From Candidatus Heimdallarchaeota archaeon (lineage in GTDB: Archaea; Asgardarchaeota; Heimdallarchaeia; Heimdallarchaeales; Kariarchaeaceae): DNA of 32,836 nt. This document shows, piece after piece, positions 2,065 through 20,137 of this stretch. A program made the translations under genes and the position numbers. The DNA lies in contig WAKA01000020.1 of NCBI GenBank assembly GCA_015523565.1, positions 1 to 32,836 of the forward strand. The letters are read 5' to 3'. Under the pieces are notes generated by a model. It made no database searches. It was given only the letters and a program-made list of their open reading frames with translations, and was not told where the DNA came from. The first letter of the stretch is position 1. Each line of letters starts with the position of its first letter.

Positions 2065-3099
2065 ATGCCATTGAAAATGAAAGCTGCAATTTACACAGGG
2101 GATCCAAAATTGGAGATTAGGGAGGTCGATGTGCCAAAAGTGGCATCAAACGAGATACTGGTTAAAATAGCCGCATGTGGGGTATGCCATACTGATGAAG
2201 GATATCTTGAAGGGGTTCCAACATTCAAGAAGCCACCTATCATCCTAGGTCACGAACCGAGCGGTCAGGTAGTCGAGGTTGGAAAGGGAGTAAAGACTTT
2301 CCAAGAGGGAGACACTGTCCTGATACCACCAGTTCTTACATGTGGGACATGCTTTTATTGTCGAAATGGTAGGGAGACCCTTTGCAGGAATCAGTTGATG
2401 TTGGGAAACCATATTGATGGGGCATTTGCAGAATACATCGCCGTACCTTCAAAAGACATTGTGAAATTGCCGAAGGGTCTTCCCCTCATAGAATCTGCCA
2501 TTATATCGGATGCAGTGGCCACCCCATACCATGCGGTTTTCAACCGTGCAAAAGCCAAGCCAGGGGACATTGCGGTTGTCATTGGATGTGGTGGGGTGGG
2601 GATAAATGTTGTGCAAATGCTAAAAGCGGCGGGAGCCACAATAATTGCAATAGATTTACAGGAAGCAAAACTACAGCTTGCAAAGGAATTGGGTGCACAT
2701 GTGACCATCAACCCGAAAGACGAGGATCCAAAGAAAATTTTGAAGTCAACGTTTCCAAGAGTGGATCTCGTTTTTGAAGTTGTCGGAAATCCGAAGACGC
2801 AACAGATGGGGTTCAACCTTCTTTCGCCTGGTGGGAAGCTTGTTTTGGTGGGCTATTCACCGAAAAAGTGGGATGGGGTTTTCTCTGGCAAGGTGATGTT
2901 TCGGGAGTTGGAGATCATTGGAAGTCTTGGATGTCCACCAAGTGACTTTGAGAGGGTCATCCATTTGGTGAAGGAAGGGAAAATCAGCTTAAAACCATTG
3001 GTGACAGCCCGTTTTCCGCTAGATAGGATAAATGATGCTTTTGATGAATTAAGAAATGGAAAAGGCATTCGAACGGTTATTACGATTAATGGGGATTAG
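2065..3099 (+). CDS. had: 6-hydroxycyclohex-1-ene-1-carbonyl-CoA dehydrogenase (Zn-dependent MDR)
   Basis: CGVCHTD and GHE catalytic Zn motifs, CxxCxxC-x7-C structural Zn, GxGGVG. Had-like DAVATPY and GSLGCPP segments. Adjacent to bcr genes. Confidence 0.8.
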   Translation: MPLKMKAAIYTGDPKLEIREVDVPKVASNEILVKIAACGVCHTDEGYLEGVPTFKKPPIILGHEPSGQVVEVGKGVKTFQEGDTVLIPPVLTCGTCFYCRNGRETLCRNQLMLGNHIDGAFAEYIAVPSKDIVKLPKGLPLIESAIISDAVATPYHAVFNRAKAKPGDIAVVIGCGGVGINVVQMLKAAGATIIAIDLQEAKLQLAKELGAHVTINPKDEDPKKILKSTFPRVDLVFEVVGNPKTQQMGFNLLSPGGKLVLVGYSPKKWDGVFSGKVMFRELEIIGSLGCPPSDFERVIHLVKEGKISLKPLVTARFPLDRINDAFDELRNGKGIRTVITINGD

Positions 3100-3159: not shown

Positions 3160-4326
3160 GTGACCTCTGCCACTTCGTCGGATCTTATTCCACTGTTGAC
3201 CAATTTACAGGAAATTACCTATGATATAGATTTTGAACAGGTTCATAAATGGAAAAGGGAGCATCCCGGCAAAAAAGCAATTGCCACTTTTCCAGTCTAT
3301 GTACCCCATGAATTGATCTATGCATATGGGCATTTGCCAGTGAATATTTACGGAGGAGGAGAGGAGATTTCAATCAGTCATGCAGATGCAATACTTGGAT
3401 CATTCATCTGTAGCATATCAAAATCTACAACGGAACTGCTATTAAGCCACCAACCTTTCAGAGATGCATTTGATGGATTTGTTTTTCCATTCATCTGTGA
3501 TGTGGCAAGAAACCTTTCAGGAATATTCGGAAGGCGGATCTCCCAACCGGTTTATATGCTCCATCTTGCACAGAATGTCCAGTCAGAGCATTCAATCCCT
3601 TACTTGAAAAATGAATTTATGCGGATGGTCAGCACCCTTTTTCCGGATGAGCAATTGGATCTGGAAAAGCTAAGGGATGCAATTTCCAAATACAATGAAA
3701 ATCGTGCATTATACAAGAAAATCTATGAATTAAGATCGGAAACACCATGGAAGGTTCCACTTGATGATTTGTACATGACAATAAGGGTTGGTTCAAATCT
3801 GGATGTAGTTAAGCATAATGAATTATTGAAATCAAAGCTTTCTGAATATGAAAAAAATGAAAGACCAAAGAAAGATGCCATAAGGGTTGTTGTAACTGGA
3901 AATTTCTGTGAACAGCCCCCTTTGGACATTATCAGACTGATTGAACAGGTAGGATGCTATGTGATCGACGATGACTTCATGATTGGCAGAAGGTTTTATC
4001 AAACACCTGTTTCTGAGGAAGGAGACCCCATCGAAGCATTGGCAAGACACTATTTGCATGAAGGGGCCAAAACGGCAACTCGTTTCCATGAGGGGGAGAA
4101 AGGAGAAGTCATTTTGGAACGGGTCAAGAATGCAAATGCGGAGGGAGTGATTTTCCTGACTGCCAAATTCTGTGAGCCTGCATTGGATGATTTGGTACTG
4201 CAACAGCAGGCATTGCAAGAAAACGGCATTCCCAGTGTGCATATAGAATTTGAGGAACGGGGATCTGGATACGAGAACATTCGGCTTTCATTGGAAACAT
4301 TTGTAGAATCGTTGTTGTTTGACTAA
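3160..4326 (+). CDS. bcrC: Benzoyl-CoA reductase subunit C
   Basis: PVYVPHE, FICSI, FPFICDVARNLSG, YNENR..RSETPWKVP, GNFCEQPPL, GCYVIDDD and FCEPAL match Thauera-type BcrC as recalled. GTG start. Confidence 0.88.
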   Translation: MTSATSSDLIPLLTNLQEITYDIDFEQVHKWKREHPGKKAIATFPVYVPHELIYAYGHLPVNIYGGGEEISISHADAILGSFICSISKSTTELLLSHQPFRDAFDGFVFPFICDVARNLSGIFGRRISQPVYMLHLAQNVQSEHSIPYLKNEFMRMVSTLFPDEQLDLEKLRDAISKYNENRALYKKIYELRSETPWKVPLDDLYMTIRVGSNLDVVKHNELLKSKLSEYEKNERPKKDAIRVVVTGNFCEQPPLDIIRLIEQVGCYVIDDDFMIGRRFYQTPVSEEGDPIEALARHYLHEGAKTATRFHEGEKGEVILERVKNANAEGVIFLTAKFCEPALDDLVLQQQALQENGIPSVHIEFEERGSGYENIRLSLETFVESLLFD

Positions 4327-4445
4327 TCCAACTGATTCTTACTGCATGTTAAAAGAAGCAAAAAAAGGGTGCAGACATCGGAAATTGGGGAAATGGAAAA
4401 AAGTTATTTAGGTATAGTAAATTCCGATACACGATACACTAAGAA

Positions 4446-4454
4446 GTTAAATAG
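4446..4454 (+). promoter_or_regulatory. Internal TATA-like box upstream of bcrB
   Basis: aagaaGTTAAATAG, 29 nt before the ATG at 4475, in a 148-bp gap. Confidence 0.5.
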
Positions 4455-4474
4455 TACGATTTCAAGAATAAGCT

Positions 4475-5725
4475 ATGGAAAATATAGTTGCTGTAAAAGA
4501 GGAAGATCTCCAATATGCCGGTGCAGCAAGAAAGATGCAAAGGCAGTTGGTCAGGGATTTTTATAGGCAAGATGTCACGAAACCAGTTGTCTATCTGTTT
4601 GTAGGTGGAAATCCAGCAGAATTATTGCGGGCATTGGGCTTTCAAGTTTACATGCCAGAAATTACCGCTTTGACGATGGCAATCCGTCATCAGTCATTGC
4701 AATATATTCTGAAAGCAGAATCAATTGGCTATGGATTGGATGTATGTGGTTATGTAAAGACAGACATCGGGCTGACGCATTTGTCAGGGGGCGAAACAGA
4801 TATGGGGAAAATCCCCCGACCTGACTTGCTGGTATGCAATTATTCTGGATGCTCAGTCTATGCGAAATGGTGGGAGGCATTGGCGGAATTCTACAAGGTT
4901 CCCCTGATAATGCTGGACATTCCCTATCATAGGTTCAATGATCCGCAAAAGGAAGATTTGGAGTACATAATCGGACAACTTCGGGAAATGGTTGAGAAAA
5001 TCGAGAAGCTTTTTGATCTAACTTTTGACATGAACAGGTTAAAGGATGTGCTTGCATATTCAAGGAAAGCAGAAGATGGGTGGGGGAGGAGTTTTGAAAT
5101 GGCAAAGCATGTGCCTTCTCCAATAGATGCCTACTTTGAATCAATATTCTACATGTTTCCGATAAATGCCTTGAGGGGAACAAAAGAAGCTGCGGAATTC
5201 TATGACCTCTTGAACAGGGAACTTGATGAGAGGGTTAAGCATGGCATTGGTCCCGTAGAAAACGAGGAATTCCGAACCGTCATTGAGGGAGTCCCACCAT
5301 ATCCCGGTTACAGGTCATTCTGGAATATGTTCAAGAAATGGAATGCCGTGTCTGTTGCGGCGACATACCCAAAGGTTGGGGGAATGTTTGATATCCCTGA
5401 GTTAAGGCATGATCCTGCCAAACCTTGGGAAAGTATTGCAAGATACAGTATTTTCAGTTACTGCAATCTTTCTTGGGATTTCCGAAGAGAAACAATCAAG
5501 CGTTATTTGGAGGATTTCAAGGCGGATGCATTGGTGATACATGGCATCAAAAGCTGTAGAAGCTTTACCGCAGGACAGGGAGATCTTAGGGATTATGTGA
5601 TCAATGAATTGGGATATCCCGCCTTATATGTGGAATCAGACCATCAAGACCCACGGTATTGGGCAGAGGCCCAGATTTTGAACAGGGTGGATGCCTTCTT
5701 TGAGGCATTGAGAATGAAGAGGTGA
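4475..5725 (+). CDS. bcrB: Benzoyl-CoA reductase subunit B
   Basis: DVCGYVKTDIG, PDLL..YSGC...KW, PSPIDAYF, RGT, VIEG.P, ATYPKVGG, HGIKSC and ESD..DPRY..AQI.NR match BcrB. Confidence 0.88.
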   Translation: MENIVAVKEEDLQYAGAARKMQRQLVRDFYRQDVTKPVVYLFVGGNPAELLRALGFQVYMPEITALTMAIRHQSLQYILKAESIGYGLDVCGYVKTDIGLTHLSGGETDMGKIPRPDLLVCNYSGCSVYAKWWEALAEFYKVPLIMLDIPYHRFNDPQKEDLEYIIGQLREMVEKIEKLFDLTFDMNRLKDVLAYSRKAEDGWGRSFEMAKHVPSPIDAYFESIFYMFPINALRGTKEAAEFYDLLNRELDERVKHGIGPVENEEFRTVIEGVPPYPGYRSFWNMFKKWNAVSVAATYPKVGGMFDIPELRHDPAKPWESIARYSIFSYCNLSWDFRRETIKRYLEDFKADALVIHGIKSCRSFTAGQGDLRDYVINELGYPALYVESDHQDPRYWAEAQILNRVDAFFEALRMKR

Positions 5726-5731
5726 AAAGAA

Positions 5732-6559
5732 ATGCAAGAGAAATATGTAGCAGGCGTGGATGTGGGAAGCACCACAGCAAAGGCAATTATATTGGACATG
5801 GACAGGAACATAGTTGGCAAGTCATTGCAAAATGTTTCTCCAAAGGTTGCAGAAGATGCAGAGACTGCATTTCTCAAGGCATGCCAAGATGCAGGCATAG
5901 ATCGAGAAAAGGTTGTATTGATCACAGGGACAGGTTATGGAAGATTAAAAGTCAGGTTCGGTCAACTCATCGTAACAGAAATCTCCTGCCATGCAAAAGG
6001 GGCACAATTTATTTTTCCGAAGACAAGGCTGACATTGGATATAGGGGGGCAAGATACAAAAGCAATCAGGCTTGGAGAAAATGGAGAGATAATCGATTTT
6101 AGTATGAACGACAAATGTTCTGCAGGAACTGGACGGTTCTTGGACGTTTGTGCAGATGCTTTAGGATTTTCTGTTTCAGATCTTGGCCCAATTTCTGAAA
6201 AATCCAGAAGACCAGTCAAAATTACAAGCACATGCACTGTTTTTGCCGAAACAGAGGTTTCCAACCAATTGGCAAGGGGCAGAAAACCAGAAGACATTGT
6301 CAATGGTCTCCATTACTCAATTGCGGAAAGATCCATTTCATTGATGCGAAGAGTCGGGATTGTTGATGAAATCACATTTACCGGCGGGGTGTCTCGAAAT
6401 ACTGGAATGGTGCGAGCCCTTGAAGACAAGCTTGGGAGAAAGATCAATGTTTCGCCGTTATCCCAATGGTTTGGAGCAATCGGGGCAGCATTGTTTGCAT
6501 TGGAAGAACTTGAGAAAGGGAGTGATCCAAAATTCATGCCAATGGAGGTGAAACAATGA
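5732..6559 (+). CDS. bcrA: Benzoyl-CoA reductase subunit A (ASKHA ATPase / [4Fe-4S] activator, short form)
   Basis: GVDVGSTTAK, GTGYGR, EISCHAKGA, DIGGQDTK, MNDKCSAGTGRFL, STCTVFA, FTGGV. GAGGTGA SD upstream. Confidence 0.82.
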   Translation: MQEKYVAGVDVGSTTAKAIILDMDRNIVGKSLQNVSPKVAEDAETAFLKACQDAGIDREKVVLITGTGYGRLKVRFGQLIVTEISCHAKGAQFIFPKTRLTLDIGGQDTKAIRLGENGEIIDFSMNDKCSAGTGRFLDVCADALGFSVSDLGPISEKSRRPVKITSTCTVFAETEVSNQLARGRKPEDIVNGLHYSIAERSISLMRRVGIVDEITFTGGVSRNTGMVRALEDKLGRKINVSPLSQWFGAIGAALFALEELEKGSDPKFMPMEVKQ

Positions 6560-7350
6560 TTACAGCAGGCATTGACATAGGCACAGGATCTACAAAAGGA
6601 GTGTTGCTTGAAGACAATGAAAAAATAATTGCAAGAGCCATAAAACCCACAAAAGGTTCCCCCGGAAAGATGGCCACTGAAATTTTCAATGAATTGCTGG
6701 AAACGTCCAAACTTGACAAAGGCGAGGTTGATTATATCGCATCAACGGGATATGGTCGTTATATGATGGAAGAACGCCAAATCCAGATCAGCGATTTGAC
6801 AACCACGGGGAGAGGTGCAAAATTCATCTATAGGGACAAGAATCCCAGCCTTATTCTGGATATAGGGACACAATCCTCTAGAGCCATAAGAGTAGATGAA
6901 CGAGGCAAGATCATCCAGTTCAAGATGAATGAAAGATGCGCCGCGGGAAGTGGAAGATTTATTGAGAGATGTTCACGTTACCTAGTTGTTCCAATGGAAA
7001 AGATTTCTGAGACAGCCATGAAAAGCACAGATCCACAAAAGATTTCCAGTGTCTGTGCAGTGCTTTCAGAAACAGAGATAATTAACCATGTCTCACAAGG
7101 GATTCCCGTTGAGGATATCTTGATGGGGGTTTTCATGAGCATCGCAGACAGGGCAGGAACTCTTTTGAAAAGGGTAAAGCTTGATGCCCCTGTCTTTCTT
7201 GCTGGAGGGCTGGTCCATATGCCTGCAATGAAAAAGGCATTGGACGAGGTACTTGACCAAGAGGTCATATCTGTGCCAGAGGCACATTTTTCAGCGGCAA
7301 TTGGTGCCGCAAGGCTTGGTTATCAAAGACTTCAAAAAATCAAGAAATAG
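6556..7350 (+). CDS. bcrD: Benzoyl-CoA reductase subunit D
   Basis: MITAGIDIGTG, RAIRVDERGK, CAAGSGRF and ISSVCAVLSETEIIN match BcrD. ATGA overlap with bcrA and GGAGGTGA SD. Confidence 0.85.
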   Translation: MITAGIDIGTGSTKGVLLEDNEKIIARAIKPTKGSPGKMATEIFNELLETSKLDKGEVDYIASTGYGRYMMEERQIQISDLTTTGRGAKFIYRDKNPSLILDIGTQSSRAIRVDERGKIIQFKMNERCAAGSGRFIERCSRYLVVPMEKISETAMKSTDPQKISSVCAVLSETEIINHVSQGIPVEDILMGVFMSIADRAGTLLKRVKLDAPVFLAGGLVHMPAMKKALDEVLDQEVISVPEAHFSAAIGAARLGYQRLQKIKK

Positions 7351-7371
7351 AGAAAAGGGGACAAAAACAAC

Positions 7372-8349
7372 ATGAGTGAATACGGATTCAAAGAAAAATT
7401 CAAACCAAAAGATGCTGAGGAATACGATTTCAAGGAAATCATATATGAAAAAGACAGGGACAAGTTTGTCGCCAAGGTCACAATCAATCGCCCACATGTA
7501 TATAATGCATATTCCACAGAAACATTGAGAGAAATGTCACAGGCATTCCTTGATGCCATGTGGGATGATGGGGTCGCCGTTGTGGTGCTTACAGGGGCAG
7601 GTGACAAGGCGTTTTGTACAGGAGGTGATGTGAAAGAATACCAGAGCATCTTCACACAAAAACCAAGAGATTATTACAAATGGATGTCACTATTTGTCGA
7701 GGCACATGACAGGTTCAGGAACATTGGTAAGCCAACAATCGCGAGAATCAACGGAATCGTTGCGGGTGGAGGAAATGAATGGAATATGGCATGCGATCTG
7801 GCTATTGCGGCAGAACATGCCACAATCCGACAAGTAGGGACAAGAGTCGGGTCTGTTGCGGCAGGAGGAGCCACCCAATGGCTCCCCATAATTGTAGGGG
7901 ACAGAAGGGCAAGAGAGATACTGTTTCTCAATGAGCCAATCCCTGCAAGAAAAGCGATGGAATGGGGTCTTGTCAACCAAGTTGTACCTTATGAGAAATT
8001 GGATGAGGCAGTGGATGCAATGGTCGAGAAATTGGTCGAAAAGTTTCCAGAATGCAGCAGATATACAAAAGAACAGGTAAACTTCTGGAAAAATTTTGCT
8101 TGGTATCAAACCATAAATCATGCAAAGGAATGGTTAACGCTTCATTATGCAAACTGGGAACCTTACGAGGGGATGACTGCATTCGTTGAAAAAAGACCGC
8201 CCAATTATAGGATGATTCGGGAAATTGCAAGAGACGGTGGATCCTCTGAGCTTATGTGGGGACCACCATCAAAGACATGCTCTGCATGCGGTGCAAAAGG
8301 ACTCCCCAAGAATTTCAAGCATTGTGGCGTTTGTGGAAAAGAACTATAG
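7372..8349 (+). CDS. oah: Oah-like ring-opening hydrolase (crotonase family) with C-terminal Zn ribbon
   Basis: YNAYST, GDKAFCTGGDVKEY, GGGNE and GSVAAGGATQWLP resemble 6-oxocyclohex-1-ene-1-carbonyl-CoA hydrolase. C-terminal CSAC..CGVC. bcr context. Confidence 0.7.
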   Translation: MSEYGFKEKFKPKDAEEYDFKEIIYEKDRDKFVAKVTINRPHVYNAYSTETLREMSQAFLDAMWDDGVAVVVLTGAGDKAFCTGGDVKEYQSIFTQKPRDYYKWMSLFVEAHDRFRNIGKPTIARINGIVAGGGNEWNMACDLAIAAEHATIRQVGTRVGSVAAGGATQWLPIIVGDRRAREILFLNEPIPARKAMEWGLVNQVVPYEKLDEAVDAMVEKLVEKFPECSRYTKEQVNFWKNFAWYQTINHAKEWLTLHYANWEPYEGMTAFVEKRPPNYRMIREIARDGGSSELMWGPPSKTCSACGAKGLPKNFKHCGVCGKEL

Positions 8350-8361
8350 GTGTAAACAACA

Positions 8362-9942
8362 ATGGCAACCATACTCACCATTGACCAAGTTACAAAAGAC
8401 CTCATCCCAGATGGATCATTCATTGCGATAGGAGGGGTTCATTCACATAATGCTCCAATGGCACTGATCAGGCAGATCATAAGGGAGGGGGTAAAAGACC
8501 TTACAGTATTGGGATCCATCTCAACAGGATTGCCGATTGATTTGCTTGTGGCAACTAAATCAGTCAAAAAAATTCTGGCACCATACGTAGGCATGGAAAT
8601 GTGGGGACTTGCACCCAATTACAGAAAAGCTGTTGAACAGGGAGAGGTGGTGGCTCCTGATGTATGCGAGGCATTCCCAATTTATGGATTAAGAGCCTCG
8701 ATAAATGGCATTCCCTTCCATCCATTCCCGCCCAATGTGCATAAGTCATCAGACATCCCTTCACAATCAGAATATTACAAGAAAGTAACTGACCCGTTTT
8801 CTGGTGAAGAAACCTATGCGATTGCCGCCATACATCCTGACATTGCATTGATCCATGTACAGAATGCAACGGTTTCAGGAGATTGTGAGCATCTTGGATC
8901 TGTTGTATTGGATCGGCTTATGGCAGAAGCATCCAAACTTACGATTGTGACCTGTGACAATTTGGTGAACACAATCGATACAAGAAATGTGACCATTCCA
9001 GGATTTTTGGTCGATTATATCGTCCCCCTCAAGGGTGCGGCTTTCCCAACCTCATCACATGGAATGTATGTCTATGATGAGACCACAATCAAAGGATACT
9101 TGAAAGCTTCAAAAAATCAAGAGGAACTACAAAGGTGGATAGATGGATTCAAAAATTCAAATGAGGAAGAGTACTTGTCCAAGCAGACCCTGACCACGGA
9201 ATTGAGAGGAAAACCAAATACAGGAGAATATACAATTTCAGAGCTTATTGCAACGGTATTTAGTAGGGACATCAAGGATGGAGAATTGGGGATCTGTGGA
9301 GCTGTTGCTGAAATTCCCATGGCCGCCATGAGGTTGGCTGAAAGATTGCATGCCCCCAATTTAAGGTGGATTTCAGGAGGATCTGGTTATATCAATCCAA
9401 GAGGAGTGCTATATCCATCCTCGACGGATTTTGAAATGTCAAGGAATGCCAATGCAAGACTTTCCATGAATGAGGTAATCGCCATGGAAATGACAAAAAT
9501 TGACTTTTTCTTTGCTGGAGGATTACAGATTGATGCAAGAGGCAGTACAAATTTGGGAGGAATACCGTCGGAAAGCGGTTGGAAACTGCGTGGACCAGGA
9601 AGTGTAGGCCTTCCATTCCTGCCTCAAGCTGGAAGAGTGTATCTTTATACCCTTTCACATAACAAGAGGTCACTTGTTGAAAAGGTGGCATATGTTTCAG
9701 GACCAGGAGCCATTGGAGAGGGCGGATCAAAACCGTCACTATTGGTTACAAACCTTTGTGTCTTTAGATGGAAGGGCAGATGGACATTGGAATCCTTGCA
9801 TCCCGGAGTAACCCTTGAAGATGTGGTTGAGAACACAGGATTTGAGTTTGATATTCCAGAAACCGTACAAACAACAAAACCACCAACACAAGAAGAATTA
9901 ACTATTCTTCGAGAAATAGATAAGTTAGGTGTCCTGAAATGA
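8362..9942 (+). CDS. Fused alpha+beta family I CoA-transferase-fold protein (GctAB/IpdAB-like)
   Basis: N-half IPDG..IAIGG...PMALIR..I..G.KDLT (GctA-like). C-half HAPNL, DFFFAGGLQID..G.TN, GPGS, LVTNLCVF, SLHPGVT...V.ENTGF (GctB-like). Confidence 0.85.
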   Translation: MATILTIDQVTKDLIPDGSFIAIGGVHSHNAPMALIRQIIREGVKDLTVLGSISTGLPIDLLVATKSVKKILAPYVGMEMWGLAPNYRKAVEQGEVVAPDVCEAFPIYGLRASINGIPFHPFPPNVHKSSDIPSQSEYYKKVTDPFSGEETYAIAAIHPDIALIHVQNATVSGDCEHLGSVVLDRLMAEASKLTIVTCDNLVNTIDTRNVTIPGFLVDYIVPLKGAAFPTSSHGMYVYDETTIKGYLKASKNQEELQRWIDGFKNSNEEEYLSKQTLTTELRGKPNTGEYTISELIATVFSRDIKDGELGICGAVAEIPMAAMRLAERLHAPNLRWISGGSGYINPRGVLYPSSTDFEMSRNANARLSMNEVIAMEMTKIDFFFAGGLQIDARGSTNLGGIPSESGWKLRGPGSVGLPFLPQAGRVYLYTLSHNKRSLVEKVAYVSGPGAIGEGGSKPSLLVTNLCVFRWKGRWTLESLHPGVTLEDVVENTGFEFDIPETVQTTKPPTQEELTILREIDKLGVLK

Positions 9943-10628
9943 ATGTATTGGTCATTGGTGCATTGGGGGGAATTGGTAAGGCAACTGTAAAAAGACTCCA
10001 GCAGTCAGGATATGAAGTAATCTCAGCAGATATACCTGTAATTGAGGATAAAAATTATATTGCAGTTGATGTTGCTGATTACAACTCAGTTAATCGGCTG
10101 TTTGGGGAATTGGAACATAAGGGGATCAAAATATCAGGGATTGTGAATTTGGCAGGGATTACAAGAGACAGGACATTGTTGAAAATGAACCATGAGGAAT
10201 GGGAAAACGTAATTTCAGTCAACCTTACAGGAAGTTTCAATGTACTTAAGCGGGGGGCGGAACACATGAAGATGCATGGAAAAGGTTCCATTGTCCTGAT
10301 TGGATCCACTGCCGCGTTGAATGGCAATTTTGGACAGACAAACTACAGTGCCTCAAAAGCAGGGATACAAGGTCTTGTGAGATCCGCGAGTAGGGAACTT
10401 GCACGGAATGGCATACGTGTCAATTGTGTCATTCCAGGGTTAATAGAAACGCCAATGTCCGCAAAGATACCAAAGGAAAGATGGGAAACCATTCTTAAGA
10501 TAATTCCGCTTGGAAGGGCAGGCAAACCTGAAGAGGTTGCAAATCTCATCAATTTTTTAATTTCCGACGAATCCTCATATATTACTGGTTCCTCGATGCT
10601 TGTCGACGGCGGATTAAGAATGTCCTGA
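9939..10628 (+). CDS. Short-chain dehydrogenase/reductase (3-oxoacyl-/3-hydroxyacyl-CoA, FabG/PhaB-like)
   Basis: GALGGIG, NLAGITRD, GQTNYSASK, VNCVIPG, YITG...VDGG. ATGA overlap with the upstream gene. Confidence 0.85.
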   Translation: MNVLVIGALGGIGKATVKRLQQSGYEVISADIPVIEDKNYIAVDVADYNSVNRLFGELEHKGIKISGIVNLAGITRDRTLLKMNHEEWENVISVNLTGSFNVLKRGAEHMKMHGKGSIVLIGSTAALNGNFGQTNYSASKAGIQGLVRSASRELARNGIRVNCVIPGLIETPMSAKIPKERWETILKIIPLGRAGKPEEVANLINFLISDESSYITGSSMLVDGGLRMS

Positions 10629-12488
10629 TCATTCATAAAAATCATTGACACCGTTTTTTCGAGCGTAGTGAATGACAGGTAATAGAAGGGTAAAAGGATA
10701 AAACATTTCAAGAGTTTTGTAGAGGTAGCCATCGACAGTTTCCCTAATTTGAAAGAATATTATGAAATCATCGGGATTCAAGCTTGAAGAATTGAAGACA
10801 CTTAAGCCACTGAAAATCAGGAGAACCTGGGTGGTTGAAAAGAATGTGCGATATTGGACAGGAATGGAATAGAATTGATGAACGTCATTCCATCCTGCGT
10901 AGATTAATTTCTCCTCCCCATTTATTGAAAGAATGACGTCAAGACGCCAATTCACGGAAAGCGGTTGATCTAAGGGCAAGACATTTTCGGGGTCACTGAC
11001 ATATTTTACATCGACAATGGAGATTTTGTCATCGTTGAATTGGATGACATCACCAACTTTCCCGTCAACATCTGTAACTTTTGTGGAGTAATGGGAAGCA
11101 AGCATTCCAAGAATAAGAAATAAAAGGAAAAGATGAGGCATGATTCTCATTGTTTTTCGAAAGGTGATTTTTTTGGGGATCGGCGGTACATTCCTCCCAT
11201 GGAACAAAAATCCCAAGAAGACAAGAAAAATGAAATAATAATAACCAAGTTTTGGAGGAGAGACCATAAGTGGGATTCCCACAAAAATGACGAGAACAGA
11301 GAACAAAACCAAGGAATTTTGTGAGAAAGAAAGAGCCAATGTATCTTTCAGGTCACGAAACAATGTCAAGGACAAGGGGAACAATAACAAGGTCAGAACA
11401 ATGAAGTGGTAAAACCCTTTGTTTGGGCTTAACTTTTTCCCAATTACAAAACCATACACTGTTAATGAAAATATGCCTGTTGAGAGAATGATAATGATCA
11501 AAAAGTTGGCCATGAGCCAAACTGAGGCACCCCTATCCTTAAAGGAAAGATCAATGTGATATGTTTTTGGCATATCCAAAAATATTATTGGGATTATTGA
11601 AAAGAGAAAGAGAGTAAGGAATATCCACATTTGAGATGAAGTTGCATAGCTATGCGGATCACGGAGTATTCCGCTTCTGATTATGGCGGTAGAAAGCAGG
11701 ATGGCAGGAAAGGTGAATTGCATTGATTTCAATTGGGTTTGCCATGAATAGCTGGCAAAATGGAATGGCAATATGGAACACATGAATATAAATAGAGTGA
11801 GAATTTCAACAGGGTCCCAAGTCCAATGTCCGCCCCAAAGGACTTCGTAAGACCAAAATGCACCAGATACGATGGCAGACGCGAAAAGAAAGACCATAAA
11901 GGCATTCATGATTTTCAGATTCTTGAATTGGGAATAGGAAACCTCCCTGCCAAAAATCGAATATGAATATAAGAAAAATGCAATAGAATAACCAAAAAAA
12001 GACAATGGCGGATGAATGTCAATATAGAAAGAACGAAGGCTTGGCGGAATGCCCAATCCCATCTCGTATCCAAGAGTCGAATACTCAAAAGGATTCTGAA
12101 AATAAAGCCCAAAAGCGATCATTAAGACAAAGGAAGAGAACAAAAGTTGAGATTTCCGAATTTGTGCCCAAAGGGATTGGATGAATTGAAATGAGACAAG
12201 GATGGTGAACCAAAGGAAAAGACTGCCCGTTGCATTTGACCAGCTTGCAAAAAGTCTTTCAGAACTATCCATTCCCCTTGAAAGAGTATGGGCAACAATT
12301 GCGTATCGAGTGTCTGAATGGATGAACAGGAAAATGAATCCAACAAACAATGACCATGAAAGGAGAGTCAAAAAACCAGATAGCAGAACTGAGAGCCTTT
12401 GATTTATTTTAAGCAACAGGCCAACGATATACAATGCCTGGAATGACAGGATTAAATAGAAAAAAACCATGAGATGCAAAGTTCTCAC
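10629..12488 (-). CDS. ccmF: Cytochrome c maturation heme lyase CcmF
   Basis: W...GSL.LW, NPF, IHPP, WSY..LWGGHWTWDPVE (WWD domain), RSGI...HSYA and a later PH. Multi-TM. Confidence 0.88.
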   Translation of the reverse strand: MRTLHLMVFFYLILSFQALYIVGLLLKINQRLSVLLSGFLTLLSWSLFVGFIFLFIHSDTRYAIVAHTLSRGMDSSERLFASWSNATGSLFLWFTILVSFQFIQSLWAQIRKSQLLFSSFVLMIAFGLYFQNPFEYSTLGYEMGLGIPPSLRSFYIDIHPPLSFFGYSIAFFLYSYSIFGREVSYSQFKNLKIMNAFMVFLFASAIVSGAFWSYEVLWGGHWTWDPVEILTLFIFMCSILPFHFASYSWQTQLKSMQFTFPAILLSTAIIRSGILRDPHSYATSSQMWIFLTLFLFSIIPIIFLDMPKTYHIDLSFKDRGASVWLMANFLIIIILSTGIFSLTVYGFVIGKKLSPNKGFYHFIVLTLLLFPLSLTLFRDLKDTLALSFSQNSLVLFSVLVIFVGIPLMVSPPKLGYYYFIFLVFLGFLFHGRNVPPIPKKITFRKTMRIMPHLFLLFLILGMLASHYSTKVTDVDGKVGDVIQFNDDKISIVDVKYVSDPENVLPLDQPLSVNWRLDVILSINGEEKLIYAGWNDVHQFYSIPVQYRTFFSTTQVLLIFSGLSVFNSSSLNPDDFIIFFQIRETVDGYLYKTLEMFYPFTLLLPVIHYARKNGVNDFYE

Positions 12489-13982: not shown

Positions 13983-16781
13983 TCAATCAGATTTCTCTTC
14001 CCAAGTCATTTCTGCAATACTCTGGTAGTTAAATGGTGAAGAATCCCGAGGCATAGATTGTGGCAGGAAATGACCAGGTTCACTTTCTTTTTTCTCCAAT
14101 TTATTCAGGAGATGATGACGAGCCCTTAGAATGTCGTCAGCCTGTACAACAGCAATGTCATTGATTTCAAGCCATTCATACAGGGCAGTTATGGCATCTA
14201 GTTCAGTCTGATCACCAAAAAACATTACAATTGCGTCAGGATGCACCCCATTTTCAACAAGAACGGTTGCCAAGATTTTCGGGACTTCACCAGGTTCCCT
14301 GCCTCTCCTATTCCAATCCTCCTTAAGGAAATACCGGTCATAATGTCCAGCCACGATTTCCGCGGCATGCTTGATGGTGCTGTCAGGTCTATCACCAGGC
14401 ATTCCAAAGACGATTGCCTTACGTCCGATTCCATGCTGATCCTTGTGAAATCCTTCAACAAGCATTATCTGAGATTTTAGGGCGTCTGGGTTGTGGCCAT
14501 AGTCGATAATGACTCTGGCACCCTTTACAAATTCAATATTCATCCTTCCAGGGGTTAGTGAATAATTTGTGGTGAATGAAGAGAGTCCAGCCCGAATATC
14601 CTCTATCGAGACAAAAGGTATTGTTGCAGCCACAACAAACATGGCATTGACAATGTTGAAGACTGCATGACCGTTATGGCAGGCAGGGATTGACTTCACA
14701 TGCAAAATAGAGGTCTGGGACTTATTCTGGATCAATTGAATCATGCCGTTTGGTGTAATTGTAACGGCGTCACCACCAGATGCAACATGATCCAGTAATT
14801 TTGGGTTTTTATAGTTCAAGGAGACCAAGACGGGCTTGCCACGAATTCTGTCGATCTGATCCATGACAAGGGGATCGTCGGCATTTATGACACCATATCC
14901 GACATCTTTTTTGACTTGATCCAAAACAACCCCCTTGACTTCTGCGAGATCCTCCAATGTTTCAACACCCCCCAATCCCAAGTGATCCTCAGAAATATTC
15001 AGCAAGCAACCGACATCACAATAGTCCCATCCCAACCCCTCCCTGAGAATGCCACCACGAGCAGTTTCCAATACTGCAAAATCAACAGTCGGATCTTTCA
15101 GCACTGCCTTTGCACTCCATGGACCCGTACAATCCCCGACGTATTGCAATTCACCATCAATGTAAATCCCGTCTGTGGTGGTAAGCCCTACTTTTCGACC
15201 AGAAAGTTTCAGCACATGTGCAATCCACCTTGACACTGTTGTTTTGCCATTTGTGCCAGTTACCGCGATCAGGGGGATGCGACCGTCATTCCCATCAGGG
15301 AACAGCATGTCTACGATCGGTTTTGCCACATTTCTGTTGGTTCCTTCAGTGGGCTCCAAATGCATTCTCAAACCAGGTGCCGCGTTTACCTCTATGATAA
15401 CACCCCGTTGCGAAAGGATTGGAATAGAAATGTCTTCTGCGATGATATCAACACCTGCGATATCCAATCCGATTGTTTTGACGGCTCGTTCAGCCAATCG
15501 GATGTTGTCATAGTGAATGATATCGGATACATCAACTGCAGTCCCACCAGTTGAAAGATTGGCAGTTGCCTTTAGTTGCACAAAACGACCTTTTTCAGGC
15601 ACATCATCAAGGGTCAATCCTTGACTTTCCAGCAGGTCAAGGGAAGATTGATCCAACGTAATCCTTGTAAGTACCTTTTCATGACCAATTCCACGTCTAG
15701 GGTCTTCATTCACGATCCTCACCAACTCATCAACAGTGTGGATGCCATCACCCACAACATGGGCAGGAATTCGTTGAGCCGCAGCAATAAATTGCCCATT
15801 CACAACCAAGACACGATAATCATTGCCTTGGACATACTGTTCCACAATTACATAGCGAGAATACTCTTTAGCCTTTTCAAACCCTTTCCTTAGATCATTC
15901 TCGTCTTCTATGTTAAGTGTCACCCCCCTCCCATGAGAAACATCAGAGGGTTTGGTCACCACAGGATAGCCAATCCGGTTCGCCTCTTCCAATGCCCCCT
16001 CAAAAGTTGTGACCTCTGCACCGCGTGGAACCGGAATGCCGACATCATATAGCATTTGAAGGGTCAGTTCCTTCTCTTGAGCGATTTCAGTTGCAATATA
16101 GGATGTCAAGCTACTAGTGGATGCCCAAATGCGTTTTTGTTTGTATCCCCATCCAAATTGCACCAAGCTCCATTTCTTCTTAAGCCGAATCGAGGGGATT
16201 CCCCGGTTTTCAGCCTCCCGTACAATTGCACCAGTGGTTGGTCCATAGGCATATTCTTCCGCAATACGGATAACTTTTGCCAAGGAAAGTCCCCAATCAA
16301 ATTCAGGGTATCGGGTTGGATCAATGCAATAATTTACAACCTGTTGAGCCAAATCAGTGGAAGCAAGTGCAGTCTCCTCATTCTTGTATTCGTAAACCAC
16401 GTTATACACACTTTCTTTACCTGTTCTGCCCAATCGATTGCGGATCTGCCTTGTTTTGCCGAATGAAACGGCAATTCCAGCAAGATTCTGTATCTCTATG
16501 GCAACATGCTCAAAAATATGCCCCATCCATGTCCCCTCATCCTCTGTGAGCCTACGGACAAAACCTCCCTTGACCCCTAAACTACAGGTATGTTCTGCCA
16601 ATGTGGGGACAAGATCTAAAAGCCGTTCATTGAAGCCATCTAGTTTCATGGAAGGATAGTCTTCCAAATCACCAATGTCAACGACCACATGCATTGCTTT
16701 TCTGTAATGGTAGATATTGGGACCGCGATAGACCCGTTTCGACACAATCTCCAAATAAAGGTCGGGTTGCATTGTATTCAT
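13983..16781 (-). CDS. cphA: Cyanophycin synthetase (CphA1)
   Basis: N domain GPNIY and EHTCS...GHIFEH. ATP-grasp GPTT..IV..A..RGIP, VTKP....HGRGV, TANLSTGG, EVNAAPGLRMH. Mur-ligase VTGTNGKTT, ETARGGILREGL, DHLG, PGRMN, DYGHNP. ATG at 16781 (ORF track begins at TTG 16784). Confidence 0.96.
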   Translation of the reverse strand: MNTMQPDLYLEIVSKRVYRGPNIYHYRKAMHVVVDIGDLEDYPSMKLDGFNERLLDLVPTLAEHTCSLGVKGGFVRRLTEDEGTWMGHIFEHVAIEIQNLAGIAVSFGKTRQIRNRLGRTGKESVYNVVYEYKNEETALASTDLAQQVVNYCIDPTRYPEFDWGLSLAKVIRIAEEYAYGPTTGAIVREAENRGIPSIRLKKKWSLVQFGWGYKQKRIWASTSSLTSYIATEIAQEKELTLQMLYDVGIPVPRGAEVTTFEGALEEANRIGYPVVTKPSDVSHGRGVTLNIEDENDLRKGFEKAKEYSRYVIVEQYVQGNDYRVLVVNGQFIAAAQRIPAHVVGDGIHTVDELVRIVNEDPRRGIGHEKVLTRITLDQSSLDLLESQGLTLDDVPEKGRFVQLKATANLSTGGTAVDVSDIIHYDNIRLAERAVKTIGLDIAGVDIIAEDISIPILSQRGVIIEVNAAPGLRMHLEPTEGTNRNVAKPIVDMLFPDGNDGRIPLIAVTGTNGKTTVSRWIAHVLKLSGRKVGLTTTDGIYIDGELQYVGDCTGPWSAKAVLKDPTVDFAVLETARGGILREGLGWDYCDVGCLLNISEDHLGLGGVETLEDLAEVKGVVLDQVKKDVGYGVINADDPLVMDQIDRIRGKPVLVSLNYKNPKLLDHVASGGDAVTITPNGMIQLIQNKSQTSILHVKSIPACHNGHAVFNIVNAMFVVAATIPFVSIEDIRAGLSSFTTNYSLTPGRMNIEFVKGARVIIDYGHNPDALKSQIMLVEGFHKDQHGIGRKAIVFGMPGDRPDSTIKHAAEIVAGHYDRYFLKEDWNRRGREPGEVPKILATVLVENGVHPDAIVMFFGDQTELDAITALYEWLEINDIAVVQADDILRARHHLLNKLEKKESEPGHFLPQSMPRDSSPFNYQSIAEMTWEEKSD

Positions 16782-16792
16782 CAAAATTAGAA

Positions 16793-17117: not shown

Positions 17118-18038
17118 TTATCTTATCCACATGGAAATTGCCACACCCATATACATCCAGAGATATGCTATTGCCATAAACATTGAAGCGAACTTGAAAA
17201 GTTTGAAAGTTGTTATATGATTGGGGTTTTGGAAGTTTTGCACTGAAAGTCGGATCAATACAATGCCGAACAGGATCAGCGGAAGTTGAGCCAACATATG
17301 GAGCCTTAAGGCATATCCTGTGGCAATGAGAAGAAAACCATCCAAGAATGATGCAATGGTCACAACATATCTTGTCTCCCTGATACCTGCGACAACAGGC
17401 CACATTGGCACCCCTGCATTTCGATAACCCTCCAGATTTTCAGGGAGGGTTGCAAGAGTCAAAATGTGGAGAGGGATCCATAAAAGGATGAAAAGGAGAA
17501 ACAAGACTGCCACCAAGTCGATTTTTCCGATGACCGCAGTCCTTCCCGCCATTGCAGGCAATCCGCCAGCGATTCCTCCAAATACAATAGACCATTTAGT
17601 CCTTCTTTTTAGCCACAATGAGTAGACAACAACATCAAAAAACAATCCTAGGGCAATAATGACTGCGGTCAGCATATTCAGGAAGTATGCAGCTCCAAAT
17701 ACACCACTAACGGAAAAGATGAAACCATGGTTCCGAACAGTGCTTGCACTTATCTTGCCAGAGGGTAAAGGGCGGTTCTGTGTCCTAGGCATTATTGCAT
17801 CGATATCCCTGTCGATGTACATGTTCAGAAGAGTGGATCCAGACACGGCAAAAAACATAGATATGGTGAGCAGGATCAAGTCTTTCAAAACAGGATAAGG
17901 ATGAGCGCTGATAAGATATGCAAAAACGGTTGTGTAGATAAGTAAAGAGGTTTGCTTTCCCTTTATCAATTCGCCATACATAGAAAAGGGAATAAAATTT
18001 GGATGCCGGTCTGCAGTTGTTAAACCATGTTCACTCAT
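17118..18038 (-). CDS. ctaB: Protoheme IX farnesyltransferase (heme O synthase, UbiA family)
   Basis: NMYIDRDID..M.RT..RPLPSG, YSLWLKRRT, GGIAGG.P..G, W.P.H...LA, Y..AGVPM. ATG at 18038 overlaps the upstream stop. Confidence 0.93.
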   Translation of the reverse strand: MSEHGLTTADRHPNFIPFSMYGELIKGKQTSLLIYTTVFAYLISAHPYPVLKDLILLTISMFFAVSGSTLLNMYIDRDIDAIMPRTQNRPLPSGKISASTVRNHGFIFSVSGVFGAAYFLNMLTAVIIALGLFFDVVVYSLWLKRRTKWSIVFGGIAGGLPAMAGRTAVIGKIDLVAVLFLLFILLWIPLHILTLATLPENLEGYRNAGVPMWPVVAGIRETRYVVTIASFLDGFLLIATGYALRLHMLAQLPLILFGIVLIRLSVQNFQNPNHITTFKLFKFASMFMAIAYLWMYMGVAISMWIR

Positions 18039-19470
18039 TTCCAACTACTCCTGTTTCAAATTCATCTGTAAGGAAATGCTTGATAAGATAATATATGCCA
18101 AAGATACCTGTAGCCATGAACATGAACATGACTCCAATATCAATGAGCAAAAACAAGGTCAACCCTTTGTCATCTGGGGAACGCAACATGTAAAGCGTTG
18201 CAAAACCGAAACCCAGGATTGACCCTATCAGGGATGACCAACCAATGAAATCGTGTATTTTTCCTTTGATATCCAAGTATTTGACAGCAAGCATCAGAAC
18301 CATAATTGCACAGATTGTAGAAATGACATGCCAATGTCCAGTATTGAAAGTCCGTTCAATTTCAGTGTATTCATCCGTACGGAATTTTTCAAGGTGTATT
18401 GCAACGTATACGCCAGGAAAAGTGCTGGTCACATTGACCCAAATAAGTTGGAAATACAAGGTGAAATCAACAGGATCCTTGAAAACAGCCATGATTTTGC
18501 TCAACAAAGGACTGGAATCATAAGAAACCCCAAGTTTCCTACGGGAAATGTTGACAATGCCATAGATGGCAGTAATCATCCCTACAAGAAGAAGAAACAT
18601 TGCCCCTACATTTATAACGACGTGGGCCTTTTCCCATGGGGTAATCACCAACCATGCGCCTATACTTATGATAACAACCCCAATATTGTAGAGTATATGG
18701 CACACTTTCAGCAATTTCCCCTTCATTCCAGAGTATTTCAGGGTAAGCAAAAGAACTGCCGCGGCCAAAAGGGCAACCATGATATGCAGATGTGATACCA
18801 CCATTTCCTTGAGAGAATATCCAACATTACCACCAGGCGCCCTGACAACATCTTCAGCAAGAACGACTTCGAAATTGGTTCCAATGTTTGACCCCACCCA
18901 TGCACCAATAATAGAAGATATCAATATCGCAAGTATTGTCAAAGACATGGAAAAGTATTCCAAATTATATTGCCTCCAATATGGTGCATCCTTTTTTTTT
19001 GTGGGAAAGGTCGTGCTCGGCCAGATCCCGATAAGCAAGAGTATTGCCCCATAAAAACTTAGGGAAAGCCCAAAAATAAAGACCCCATGAGGCACTTGGG
19101 AATCAATTGGAGAATACCCATAAACCATTCCAAAAAAGCCAGTGAGCAAAGCCCCAATTGTGATTGCCCATTTTGCCTGTATTTCTAAAGTGCCGCGGAT
19201 TTCATACCAATCAAGAACAAAATAAGAGACAGCCGCAAGAAATGGGACTGCCAATGAATGATAAAGCATGATGATCCGTCCAGCCCTTGTTCTAGGCGAA
19301 TTGTCAAGATCAACAGGAATCAACGGTTTGCCGAATATTTCGACTACAGGTTTTGAAAAAGTACTCAAAAACACTATAATTGCAAGCTCAAAAAGGATAA
19401 TCAAAGCGATTAGTCCCCTATAACTAGTAAAAAACTGCTTTATTTTCCCAATGAAAGTTATTGTAATCAC
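18031..19470 (-). CDS. 12-TM His-rich membrane protein, possible divergent heme-copper oxidase subunit I fold
   Basis: Twelve hydrophobic segments with YH (TM2), SHLH (TM6) and GHWH (TM10). Start probably GTG 19470 or nearby; the ORF-track start at 19515 overlaps the upstream gene. The CDS is solid, the fold assignment is tentative. Confidence 0.6.
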   Translation of the reverse strand: MITITFIGKIKQFFTSYRGLIALIILFELAIIVFLSTFSKPVVEIFGKPLIPVDLDNSPRTRAGRIIMLYHSLAVPFLAAVSYFVLDWYEIRGTLEIQAKWAITIGALLTGFFGMVYGYSPIDSQVPHGVFIFGLSLSFYGAILLLIGIWPSTTFPTKKKDAPYWRQYNLEYFSMSLTILAILISSIIGAWVGSNIGTNFEVVLAEDVVRAPGGNVGYSLKEMVVSHLHIMVALLAAAVLLLTLKYSGMKGKLLKVCHILYNIGVVIISIGAWLVITPWEKAHVVINVGAMFLLLVGMITAIYGIVNISRRKLGVSYDSSPLLSKIMAVFKDPVDFTLYFQLIWVNVTSTFPGVYVAIHLEKFRTDEYTEIERTFNTGHWHVISTICAIMVLMLAVKYLDIKGKIHDFIGWSSLIGSILGFGFATLYMLRSPDDKGLTLFLLIDIGVMFMFMATGIFGIYYLIKHFLTDEFETGVVGNE

Positions 19471-19480
19471 CTCTTGCCTC

Positions 19481-20137
19481 TTATTTGACCAGCATGTCCG
19501 AAATGAAAGGCACATTTATTCTCCATTTTTCAGGGAATACAATTCCAAGAGTGAAGAAAGCACCTACAATGAGCAATAGCGGGGGAAGCACAAGAAAGAT
19601 CTGTCCTTCAGTCAAGATGGGACTTCCGATGGCTACAAAAGCCAAAAGTGCACCTCCAAAACTAATCAGGACCCCACCTATGCTCATAAAGTATGCGTTG
19701 GCTTCTTTTGAAACAATGGGAAGAAGGATAATCAAAATGCCTGAGGGGATGTGCATAGCCATGATAAGTCCAGAGGTCGAGGTGTCACCAGCCAGTCTTA
19801 CCCATGCAGTGATAACCATCATTATAAGTTCATACAGCAAGAACACCCACCCATATAATGGGTTGTCTTCAAACACCGCAAAAAGAAGCCCAACAGCCAT
19901 GCCGATAGGGATTAATGCGGCAACGACCGGCACAAGCTCTGTTTTAAGGATATCGAAGTCAAAAAGGATTATCAGTACACCCGAAACAAAGAGCACAATG
20001 TATGAAATGCCCCAAAACAGGTGATACTTGTTCTTCGAGGCAACATATTCCTTTAAAAGGAAAATGCCCACATAGACGGCTACAATGCCCGTCAGCAACA
20101 GGAATATGATTGAAACTAAGTTGTCCAACATGGTCAT
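19481..20137 (-). CDS. Hypothetical 7-TM membrane protein
   Basis: 218 aa, about 7 hydrophobic helices, first gene of the apparent operon with ctaB; TATA box 28 nt upstream. Confidence 0.8.
   Translation of the reverse strand: MTMLDNLVSIIFLLLTGIVAVYVGIFLLKEYVASKNKYHLFWGISYIVLFVSGVLIILFDFDILKTELVPVVAALIPIGMAVGLLFAVFEDNPLYGWVFLLYELIMMVITAWVRLAGDTSTSGLIMAMHIPSGILIILLPIVSKEANAYFMSIGGVLISFGGALLAFVAIGSPILTEGQIFLVLPPLLLIVGAFFTLGIVFPEKWRINVPFISDMLVK

Follow-up and report, generated by a model that had tools for sequence, protein, structure and literature searches.

The stretch of DNA analysed here (the window), 32,836 nucleotides of contig WAKA01000020.1 from a Candidatus Heimdallarchaeota archaeon (assembly GCA_015523565.1), carries at positions 8362 to 9942 of its forward strand a fused gene of the coenzyme A (CoA)-transferase fold. 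The 526-amino-acid product is likely a non-transferase acid-base enzyme of a ring pathway, and the best explanation of its role, held tentatively and with somewhat less than even confidence, is that of an IpdAB-type water-adding enzyme acting as a Dch-type hydratase and probably replacing Dch. The initial annotation had proposed a role other than CoA transfer, possibly one that fills a missing step of the operon, and this is still the best reading. The gene and its critical positions are as follows:

8362..9942, forward strand: fused CoA-transferase-fold gene for 526 amino acids (protein P0001), translated without internal stops, stop codon included
8362..9216, forward strand: alpha half (GctA/IpdA/AibA-like), residues 1-285, from structure and profile matches
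9226..9939, forward strand: beta half (GctB/AibB-like), residues 289-526, from matches to AibB and GctB
8668..8670, forward strand: codon of alpha Glu103, the candidate general base, at the IpdA Glu105 position
9376..9381, forward strand: codons of Gly339-Gly340, at the catalytic beta-Glu site of family I (position of Gct Glu54, AibB Cys56 and IpdB Gly57)

Two matches to PF01144 (CoA_trans, 131 bits) were found in the protein with Pfam, and it has the two-domain alpha/beta CoA_trans fold of family I CoA-transferases. Against solved structures, residues 4-279 matched GctA (1e-27), AibA (4e-26) and IpdA (1e-16), and residues 289-523 matched AibB (4e-17) and GctB (1e-13), while the IpdB match to the beta half was confined to its C-terminal third (2e-6). 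A profile of the alpha half searched against the PDB gave 1poi_A at 2.9e-53, 5mzw_A at 3.4e-44 and 6co6_A at 2.3e-40, with bit scores that fell from GctA (183.7) to AibA (153.9) to IpdA (141.3). An AlphaFold2 (AF2) model built on 24 homologues scored a pLDDT of 90.2 and a pTM of 0.90, and as a full model, with both halves, it aligned to the single-chain family I transferases SCOT, ASCT and YdiF at Z ~30. Using VIA-align, the alpha half was tied between IpdA (6co6_A, Z 34.4, root-mean-square deviation 1.8 Å over 271 residues), GctA (1poi_A, Z 34.0) and AibA (Z 33.2), and the beta half aligned to AibB at Z 27.9 (2.3 Å over 232 residues). The product is thus an enzyme of the glutaconate-CoA-transferase type in which alpha and beta subunits are naturally fused. 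Neither its sequence nor its structure places it nearer to IpdAB than to GctAB or AibAB, the structural Z scores being tied. The read sets that list the window are DNA from hydrothermal-vent metagenomes of one study, and no RNA set is listed.

The segment HAPNLRWISGGSG of the beta half starts at residue 330 (nt 9349-9387). Alignment with AibB pairs Gly339 with AibB Cys56, the position varied in PDB entries 5N00-5N03, and makes Gly340 a one-residue insertion. AibB Cys56 stands in for the conserved catalytic Glu of Gct enzymes (PMC7756340), which is Glu54 in GctB, and Gly57 occupies the same site in IpdB of RHA1 (PMC5380842); the beta catalytic position was assigned from the AibB alignment and these two papers. 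There are no acidic residues in positions 336-347. Since Gly339 lies at the AibB Cys56/Gct Glu54 position and the loop is acid-free, the thioester-forming beta Glu is, by alignment, missing from the protein, in agreement with the initial annotation, and a check for another Glu at the GctB catalytic position found only Gly339/Gly340. The protein is therefore without the beta Glu of competent family I CoA-transferases of the Gct/OXCT type and has instead the Gly that marks IpdAB-type hydrolases (IpdB Gly57). IpdAB has no CoA-transferase activity (PMC5380842).

In the alpha half, the motif DVCEAFPIYGL, which starts at residue 100, had been matched by eye to the MDEG segment of IpdA, and the match proved exact. 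A profile of 24 alpha sequences paired Glu103 with the Glu of EMDEGM in IpdA (6co6_A and 6con_A), and 6coj_A, titled as the E105A variant, reads EMDAGM at this column, which holds Gln in GctA and Gly in AibA. The alpha catalytic Glu105 that marks IpdAB-type hydrolases thus has its counterpart in the window protein. Alignment against GctAB, IpdAB and AibAB, which had been suggested as a check, confirmed the CoA-transferase fold as well as the placement of the alpha Glu at the catalytic site of IpdA. The proton relay of AibAB (beta Cys56 and Glu72) is replaced by Gly339 and Thr355, with a family consensus of Gly and Cys at the two positions.

The gene is no isolated oddity. It represents, in fused form, a large family, here called the GGSG family, which consists mostly of split alpha/beta pairs. 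Full-length relatives with 58-76% identity were found in Heimdallarchaeota/Kariarchaeaceae metagenome-assembled genomes (MAGs). Stand-alone beta subunits that matched the beta half with 45-53% identity numbered more than 1000, its identity to split members being 47-53%, and 109 of the 118 best beta matches carried APN-x5-GGSG. In a conservation sample of 66 alpha and 66 beta sequences drawn from genomes, Glu103 and Gly339 were each present in 66/66 and Gly340 in 65/66, so that neither motif is due to chance; other residues whose conservation is specific to the family include His27, His29, Asn30, Glu79, Arg88 and Asp184 in the alpha half and Glu376 and His433 in the beta half. The window protein itself has APN-x5-GGSG, the invariant alpha Glu within (D/C)E(A/P) and the alpha-N-terminal GG(M/V)HxHN, and the neighbourhood of the crotonase ECH1, a short-chain dehydrogenase/reductase (SDR) and a dearomatising reductase is found in the window and at related loci. 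A more distant fused clade, P0028-P0032, has an AibB-like NCVG (NCVGAID) and is without the alpha Glu. We regard the GGSG family as a third clade, and a large one, of Gct-fold enzymes without the glutamate.

Fusion of the two subunits arose several times. In the window's class, the fused form was present in 5/12 genomes of one family and in 0/71 other genomes, and fused forms also occur in a Blastocatellia-type group and in Heliophilum fasciatum (full-length identity 39%). In one Blastocatellia MAG (L001, 1551-5158), a split CoA_trans pair adjoins an Oxidored_FMN/Pyr_redox (2,4-dienoyl-CoA-reductase-like) gene, besides a fused CoA-transferase-like gene.

The CoA-transferase-like gene is the seventh in a tight operon, the other genes of which are listed here:

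2065..3099, forward strand: Had-like Zn alcohol dehydrogenase (TIGR03201, 273 bits, cut-off 339)
3160..7350, forward strand: class I benzoyl-CoA-reductase-like genes (TIGR02263 and TIGR02260 at ~315 bits, equivalog cut-offs 421-486)
3160-4326, forward strand: bcrC-like gene
4475-5725, forward strand: bcrB-like gene
5732-6559 and 6556-7350, forward strand: reductase ATPases (bcrA- and bcrD-like)
7372..8349, forward strand: ECH1 crotonase, 12 nt upstream of the CoA-transferase-like gene
9939..10628, forward strand: FabG/PhaB-like SDR, whose start overlaps the CoA-transferase-like stop codon

Homologues of the Had-like gene, at 48-55% identity, were present in many related clusters. A hydroxyglutarate pathway, in which GctAB would work with a 2-hydroxyglutaryl-CoA dehydratase, was considered for the operon and rejected, both because the HGD-D subunits scored ~315 bits to BcrB/BcrC against 160-180 to the dehydratases and because there are two different ATPase genes.

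The crotonase upstream of the fused gene had been annotated as oah. This did not hold, since ECH1 reached 187 bits against the Oah model with its cut-off of 464; it forms a separate MenB/Oah-like subfamily of crotonases that carries a zinc ribbon. MenB and BadI are equally close to it, with ~40% identity to MenB structures, and its C-terminal CxxC-x11-CxxC ribbon keeps all four Cys in 46/46 homologues. At the two classical hydratase Glu sites, ECH1 and true Oah both have Glu (GGxE) followed by Gly, and a Dch-like sequence has both Glu residues (QPE). ECH1 looks like a probable ring opener from these sequence features. It is the best Oah-like match in the window genome (G000, 90% complete) and in 4/5 carrier genomes, and neither a true Oah nor a true Dch scored above cut-off in G000 or the five carriers (TIGR03189 for Dch). 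Across 60 related loci, from Asgard archaea to several bacterial phyla, ECH1 retained 54-71% identity, which suggests that the cassette may have moved by lateral transfer.

The set of genes seen in the window recurs on another Asgard contig, and Dormibacterota, Actinomycetota, Chloroflexota and Clostridia repeat the arrangement BcrC-BcrB-BcrA-BcrD-ECH1-alpha-beta-SDR with alpha and beta as separate genes. In Thermoplasmata and Methanomassiliicoccales, the cluster consists of ECH1, DUF35, thiolase, SDR, alpha, beta, Had-like and acyl-CoA dehydrogenase genes with no reductase nearby. In several Bacillota the pair is linked to BamB-type (class II) reductase genes, and besides Had-like and Acd-like dehydrogenase genes these Bam clusters contain a member of the benzoate-CoA-ligase family (TIGR02262, 642 bits). 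The pair is linked to dearomatising reductases of both the ATP-dependent and the BamB types. Neighbours were counted at the 36 loci with enough flank: an SDR lay near the pair in 35, ECH1 in 28, class I benzoyl-CoA-reductase (BCR)-like genes in 21-23, a thiolase in 16, an acyl-CoA dehydrogenase in 13, a Had-like gene in 10 and Bam-like genes in 8.

Cultured carriers of the family are Heliophilum fasciatum DSM 11170, Desulfosporosinus sp. I2 and Paradesulfitobacterium ferrireducens. The heliobacterium Heliophilum has a full cluster (L020, NZ_SLXT01000013.1), which contains an SDR, ECH1, four BCR-like genes, the fused CoA-transferase-like gene (8981-10768) and a Had-like gene, together with a second crotonase, two thiolases, two ligases and an acyl-CoA dehydrogenase; we know of no description of aromatic-acid use by this organism. 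In two Deltaproteobacteria MAGs (L050 and L057), the pair occurs with two HGD-D subunits and without ATPase genes within 10 kb, next to an extra distant CoA-transferase-beta-like gene, an acyl-CoA dehydrogenase, an SDR and a PaaK-like ligase. Neither ECH1 nor Oah was found in these two genomes, which may represent a different use of the GGSG family.

The classical lower pathway consists of Dch, Had and Oah, and the clusters offer the CoA-transferase-like enzyme, a Had-like enzyme or SDR, and the Oah-like ECH1. Among 70 crotonase-like open reading frames in ~88 loci, 60 were ECH1, seven were generic and one was a true Oah; none was clearly of the Dch type, as the best reached 36% identity and did not stand apart from generic crotonases. 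Carriers of the family made up 7/112 genomes of one Bacillota class. Six of these seven have ECH1 and no Oah. The exception is Desulfosporosinus sp. I2, in which ECH1 is absent and a true BamA (559 bits) is present. Its cluster (L101/L102, on a contig of 56846 bp) contains BamA, BamB-type genes, alpha, beta, SDR, thiolase, a metallo-beta-lactamase (MBL)-fold hydrolase and a Had-like gene. Sigma-54 regulators lie nearby, as does a benzoate-CoA-ligase-like gene, and no Dch was found within 32 kb. In another genome (G044), a Bam cluster with a true Oah has an aminotransferase where Desulfosporosinus sp. I2 has the pair. A further module, on the Thermoplasmata chromosome G004 (CP070629.1; L072, locus 6065-10792), comprises DUF35, an SCP-x-type thiolase, an SDR and the pair among unrelated flanking genes, and is a beta-oxidation set short of the hydratase only.

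A Dch-type hydratase is favoured because no Dch was found in the clusters, an Oah-like ECH1 or BamA is present, and the first move of Dch is the same as that of IpdAB. In the scheme that follows, we infer which substrate is bound, that it is hydrated and in what sequence the enzymes act. The CoA-transferase-like enzyme would bind the alicyclic enoyl-CoA delivered by the neighbouring reductase, cyclohexa-1,5-diene-1-carbonyl-CoA or a close relative, and Glu103 would serve as the general base that adds water to the ring double bond beside the thioester. This hydration would be equivalent to the first half-reaction of IpdAB and to the reaction of the crotonase Dch/BamR; by analogy, the water that Dch adds at the ring carbon beta to the thioester would correspond to the first move of IpdAB on 6-oxo-cyclohexene-carboxyl-CoA. 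The alcohol would then be oxidised by the Had-like dehydrogenase or the SDR, the Oah-like ECH1 would open the ring, and the SDR, with thiolase where present, would carry on beta-oxidation. On a broader reading, which we consider somewhat more doubtful, there is a second, widespread benzoyl-CoA lower pathway in which a CoA-transferase-fold hydratase, the ECH1 ring hydrolase and SDR/Had would replace Dch-Had-Oah; the same doubt attaches to its proposed scope, which covers Dormibacterota, Actinomycetota, Chloroflexota, many Bacillota, Thermoplasmata and one Heimdallarchaeial family.

Several observations weigh against hydration of a benzoyl-CoA-derived ring. The position of Glu103 beside the bound thioester comes from alignment to IpdA, and the shared Glu/Gly pattern could be convergent because the sequence is no closer to IpdAB than to GctAB/AibAB. 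The window genome has seven other crotonases besides ECH1 and no true benzoate-CoA ligase, the best candidate scoring 278 bits against a cut-off of 375. A divergent Dch may be missed at the TIGR03189 cut-off, and in several Bacillota clusters a generic second crotonase adjoins Had and could serve as Dch. No genome of the Bacillota class, and 7/401 genomes of the phylum that includes the MAG G198, scored above the TIGR03189 cut-off. In two taxon samples, the family was present in 0/15 genomes with a Dch-type crotonase and a Dch-type crotonase in 0/11 carriers, a complementarity that is suggestive, with small counts, related genomes and an overlap of <1 expected by chance. Neither ECH1 nor Oah was found in G004 or in the MAGs G198, G199 and G201, so that the substrate of the family is not always a benzoyl-CoA-derived ring. 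These four genomes rule out that all carriers degrade benzoyl-CoA, and G004 indicates that the GGSG family also works outside ring degradation.

The leading rival is an IpdAB-like ring-opening hydrolase, the open-chain (3-oxo or 3-hydroxy) acyl-CoA product of which would pass to SDR and thiolase while ECH1 acts as the Dch-type hydratase. Both catalytic hallmarks of IpdAB are present, a thiolase lies near the pair in 16/36 loci (directly after the pair or the SDR in several), the order MenB-like crotonase-alpha-beta mirrors echA20-ipdA-ipdB of M. tuberculosis, and carriers lacking ECH1/Oah would still have a ring opener. However, ECH1 scores ~190-200 bits to Oah against 31-44 to Dch and has the single-Glu pattern of Oah, not the two-Glu pattern of hydratases, and Desulfosporosinus sp. 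I2 would be left with two ring openers and no hydratase. From the chemistry, a retro-aldol cut of an unsubstituted ring would also yield an aldehyde, and the clusters contain no aldehyde dehydrogenase. Most clusters read have an Oah-type crotonase, either ECH1 or true BamA, next to the pair; for this reason water addition is preferred to ring cleavage, and ring opening by the window protein is rather unlikely. Of the ring-opening proposal in the initial annotation, the alpha Glu hallmark of IpdA stands and the cleavage itself is less favoured. The AibAB-type decarboxylase that had been raised alongside it is a weaker candidate. At the end of the benzoyl-CoA pathway, a non-decarboxylating dehydrogenase would turn glutaryl-CoA into glutaconyl-CoA, and such a soluble enzyme would convert this to crotonyl-CoA, to be taken to acetyl-CoA by crotonase, SDR and thiolase. 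The solved relatives closest in sequence, GctAB and AibAB (the latter the best beta match), bind glutaconyl-type acyl groups, an acyl-CoA dehydrogenase is nearby in 13/36 loci, and in the Bacillota locus L007 this dehydrogenase scored 448 bits to the non-decarboxylating glutaryl-CoA dehydrogenase of the Desulfococcus type (cut-off 470). OAD_beta, a membrane decarboxylase subunit, was not found in G000, Heliophilum, a Dormibacterota MAG or the Thermoplasmata chromosome, and the proposal suits clusters that have ring enzymes as well as those that have none. Against this, both proposed proton donors of AibB are gone, Cys56 being Gly and Glu72 being Thr (mostly Cys in the family), and the AibAB-like fused clade P0028-P0032 is without the alpha Glu that is invariant in the GGSG family. 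Moreover, Desulfosporosinus sp. I2 has, elsewhere in its genome, an Acd-like dehydrogenase adjoining a GcdB-type decarboxylase subunit, and so a second glutaconyl-CoA decarboxylase is not needed there. The tightest and widest linkage of the pair is to ECH1, SDR and reductase, while that to glutaryl-CoA dehydrogenase is weaker, with none near the Dormibacterota cassettes. Decarboxylation is unlikely, as both acid residues of AibB are lacking and the activity would be redundant in Desulfosporosinus sp. I2.

Other reactions that need no covalent Glu are a double-bond isomerisation of the dienoyl-CoA and a ThnP-like intramolecular CoA transfer on a dicarboxylic product, and we regard this pair of options as less likely again. 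Isomerases that perform a 1,3-proton shift use a single invariant carboxylate, as Glu103 would be, and the existence of carriers that have no ring enzymes shows the family not to be bound to one substrate. ThnP, of the Cat1 type, has Gly for the catalytic Glu and still moves CoA intramolecularly (PMC11659651), but it is a member of another subgroup, and a further Glu close by is invoked in the same paper. The classical benzoyl-CoA lower pathway needs neither a CoA shift nor an isomerase, and the gene contexts give no specific support for either. An ordinary family I CoA-transferase using a different carboxylate as nucleophile is very improbable. The fold is complete and confidently predicted, with SCOT and YdiF at Z ~30, and other conserved acids are present in the beta half (Glu294, Asp356, Glu376 and Asp391), yet Gly339/Gly340 hold the nucleophile position across the family in a loop without a conserved acid, and both solved Glu-less relatives are non-transferases. 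Benzoate-CoA-ligase-family genes are present in several clusters, so activation there does not require a transferase.

Outside the operon, the window contains a cytochrome c assembly-like membrane protein gene (10629-12488, reverse strand), a UbiA-family prenyltransferase gene (17118-18044, reverse strand) and, adjoining the latter, a gene for a 494-amino-acid protein with no Pfam match (18031-19515, reverse strand). The presence of these three genes near an operon for an oxygen-sensitive type of reductase hints at a respiratory lifestyle. A cyanophycin-synthetase-like gene with a Cyanophycin_syn N-domain, ATP-grasp and Mur ligase domains lies at 13983-16784 on the reverse strand, and a peptidase S51 (cyanophycinase-family) gene at 20972-21859 on the forward strand.

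Full-text searches returned no papers linking such a CoA-transferase-like gene to benzoyl-CoA clusters and no description of the GGSG family, and a paper on Asgard benzoyl-CoA genes reports Bcr in Heimdallarchaeota without mention of the gene. If dienoyl-CoA hydration or ring opening is the true function, the missing Dch of many predicted benzoyl-CoA pathways, those of Asgard archaea included, would be explained, the gene would be a new marker for anaerobic aromatic degradation, and the IpdAB solution, in which the beta Glu is lost and an alpha Glu gained, would be in use well beyond steroid catabolism. If there is indeed a second lower pathway, surveys with bamA/oah and dch as markers would overlook a large part of the organisms that degrade aromatic rings anaerobically (or microaerobically).

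IpdAB of R. jostii RHA1 and M. tuberculosis (PDB 6CO6, 6CO9, 6COJ and 6CON), the COCHEA-CoA hydrolase of steroid ring C, shares with the window protein the GctAB fold, a Gly at the beta Glu site and an alpha Glu at the same position (Glu105 versus Glu103), as well as a plausibly similar substrate class (cyclohex-1-ene-1-carboxyl-CoA) and a gene setting in which a MenB-like crotonase is encoded immediately upstream and SDRs close by. The window protein is no orthologue, however, as the alpha halves are only ~26% identical and the beta match is partial. It is fused, whereas IpdAB has two subunits; its gene belongs to an anaerobic aromatic-ring (BCR/Bam) cluster and not to the KstR2 steroid regulon; it has the family motifs GG(M/V)HxHN and GGSG; and it probably hydrates only, with ring cleavage left to ECH1 or BamA. 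AibAB of Myxococcus xanthus (PDB 5MZW), the 3-methylglutaconyl-CoA decarboxylase, is a Gct-family enzyme without the beta Glu and the best match to the beta half, but differs in having Cys56 and Glu72 where the window protein has Gly and Thr, and Gly in AibA at the position of Glu103.

Glutaconate CoA-transferase, GctAB of Acidaminococcus fermentans (PDB 1POI), is the best alpha match with the same two-domain architecture. GctA has Gln at the Glu103 position, and since the window protein has no equivalent of GctB Glu54, ping-pong thioester transfer is not expected. Dch/BamR, of the crotonase family (TIGR03189), has the same proposed reaction and place in the pathway on an unrelated fold, and is thus a functional analogue only. 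ThnP of anaerobic naphthalene degradation resembles the window protein in its family I fold, its Gly for the catalytic Glu and its anaerobic aromatic pathway, and is set apart by its single-chain Cat1 subgroup, as opposed to the Gct subgroup, and its ring-derived dicarboxyl-CoA substrate. To our knowledge, only two repurposed GctAB-fold enzymes are known, the hydrolase IpdAB and the decarboxylase AibAB; the GGSG family would be a third such clade, much larger than either.

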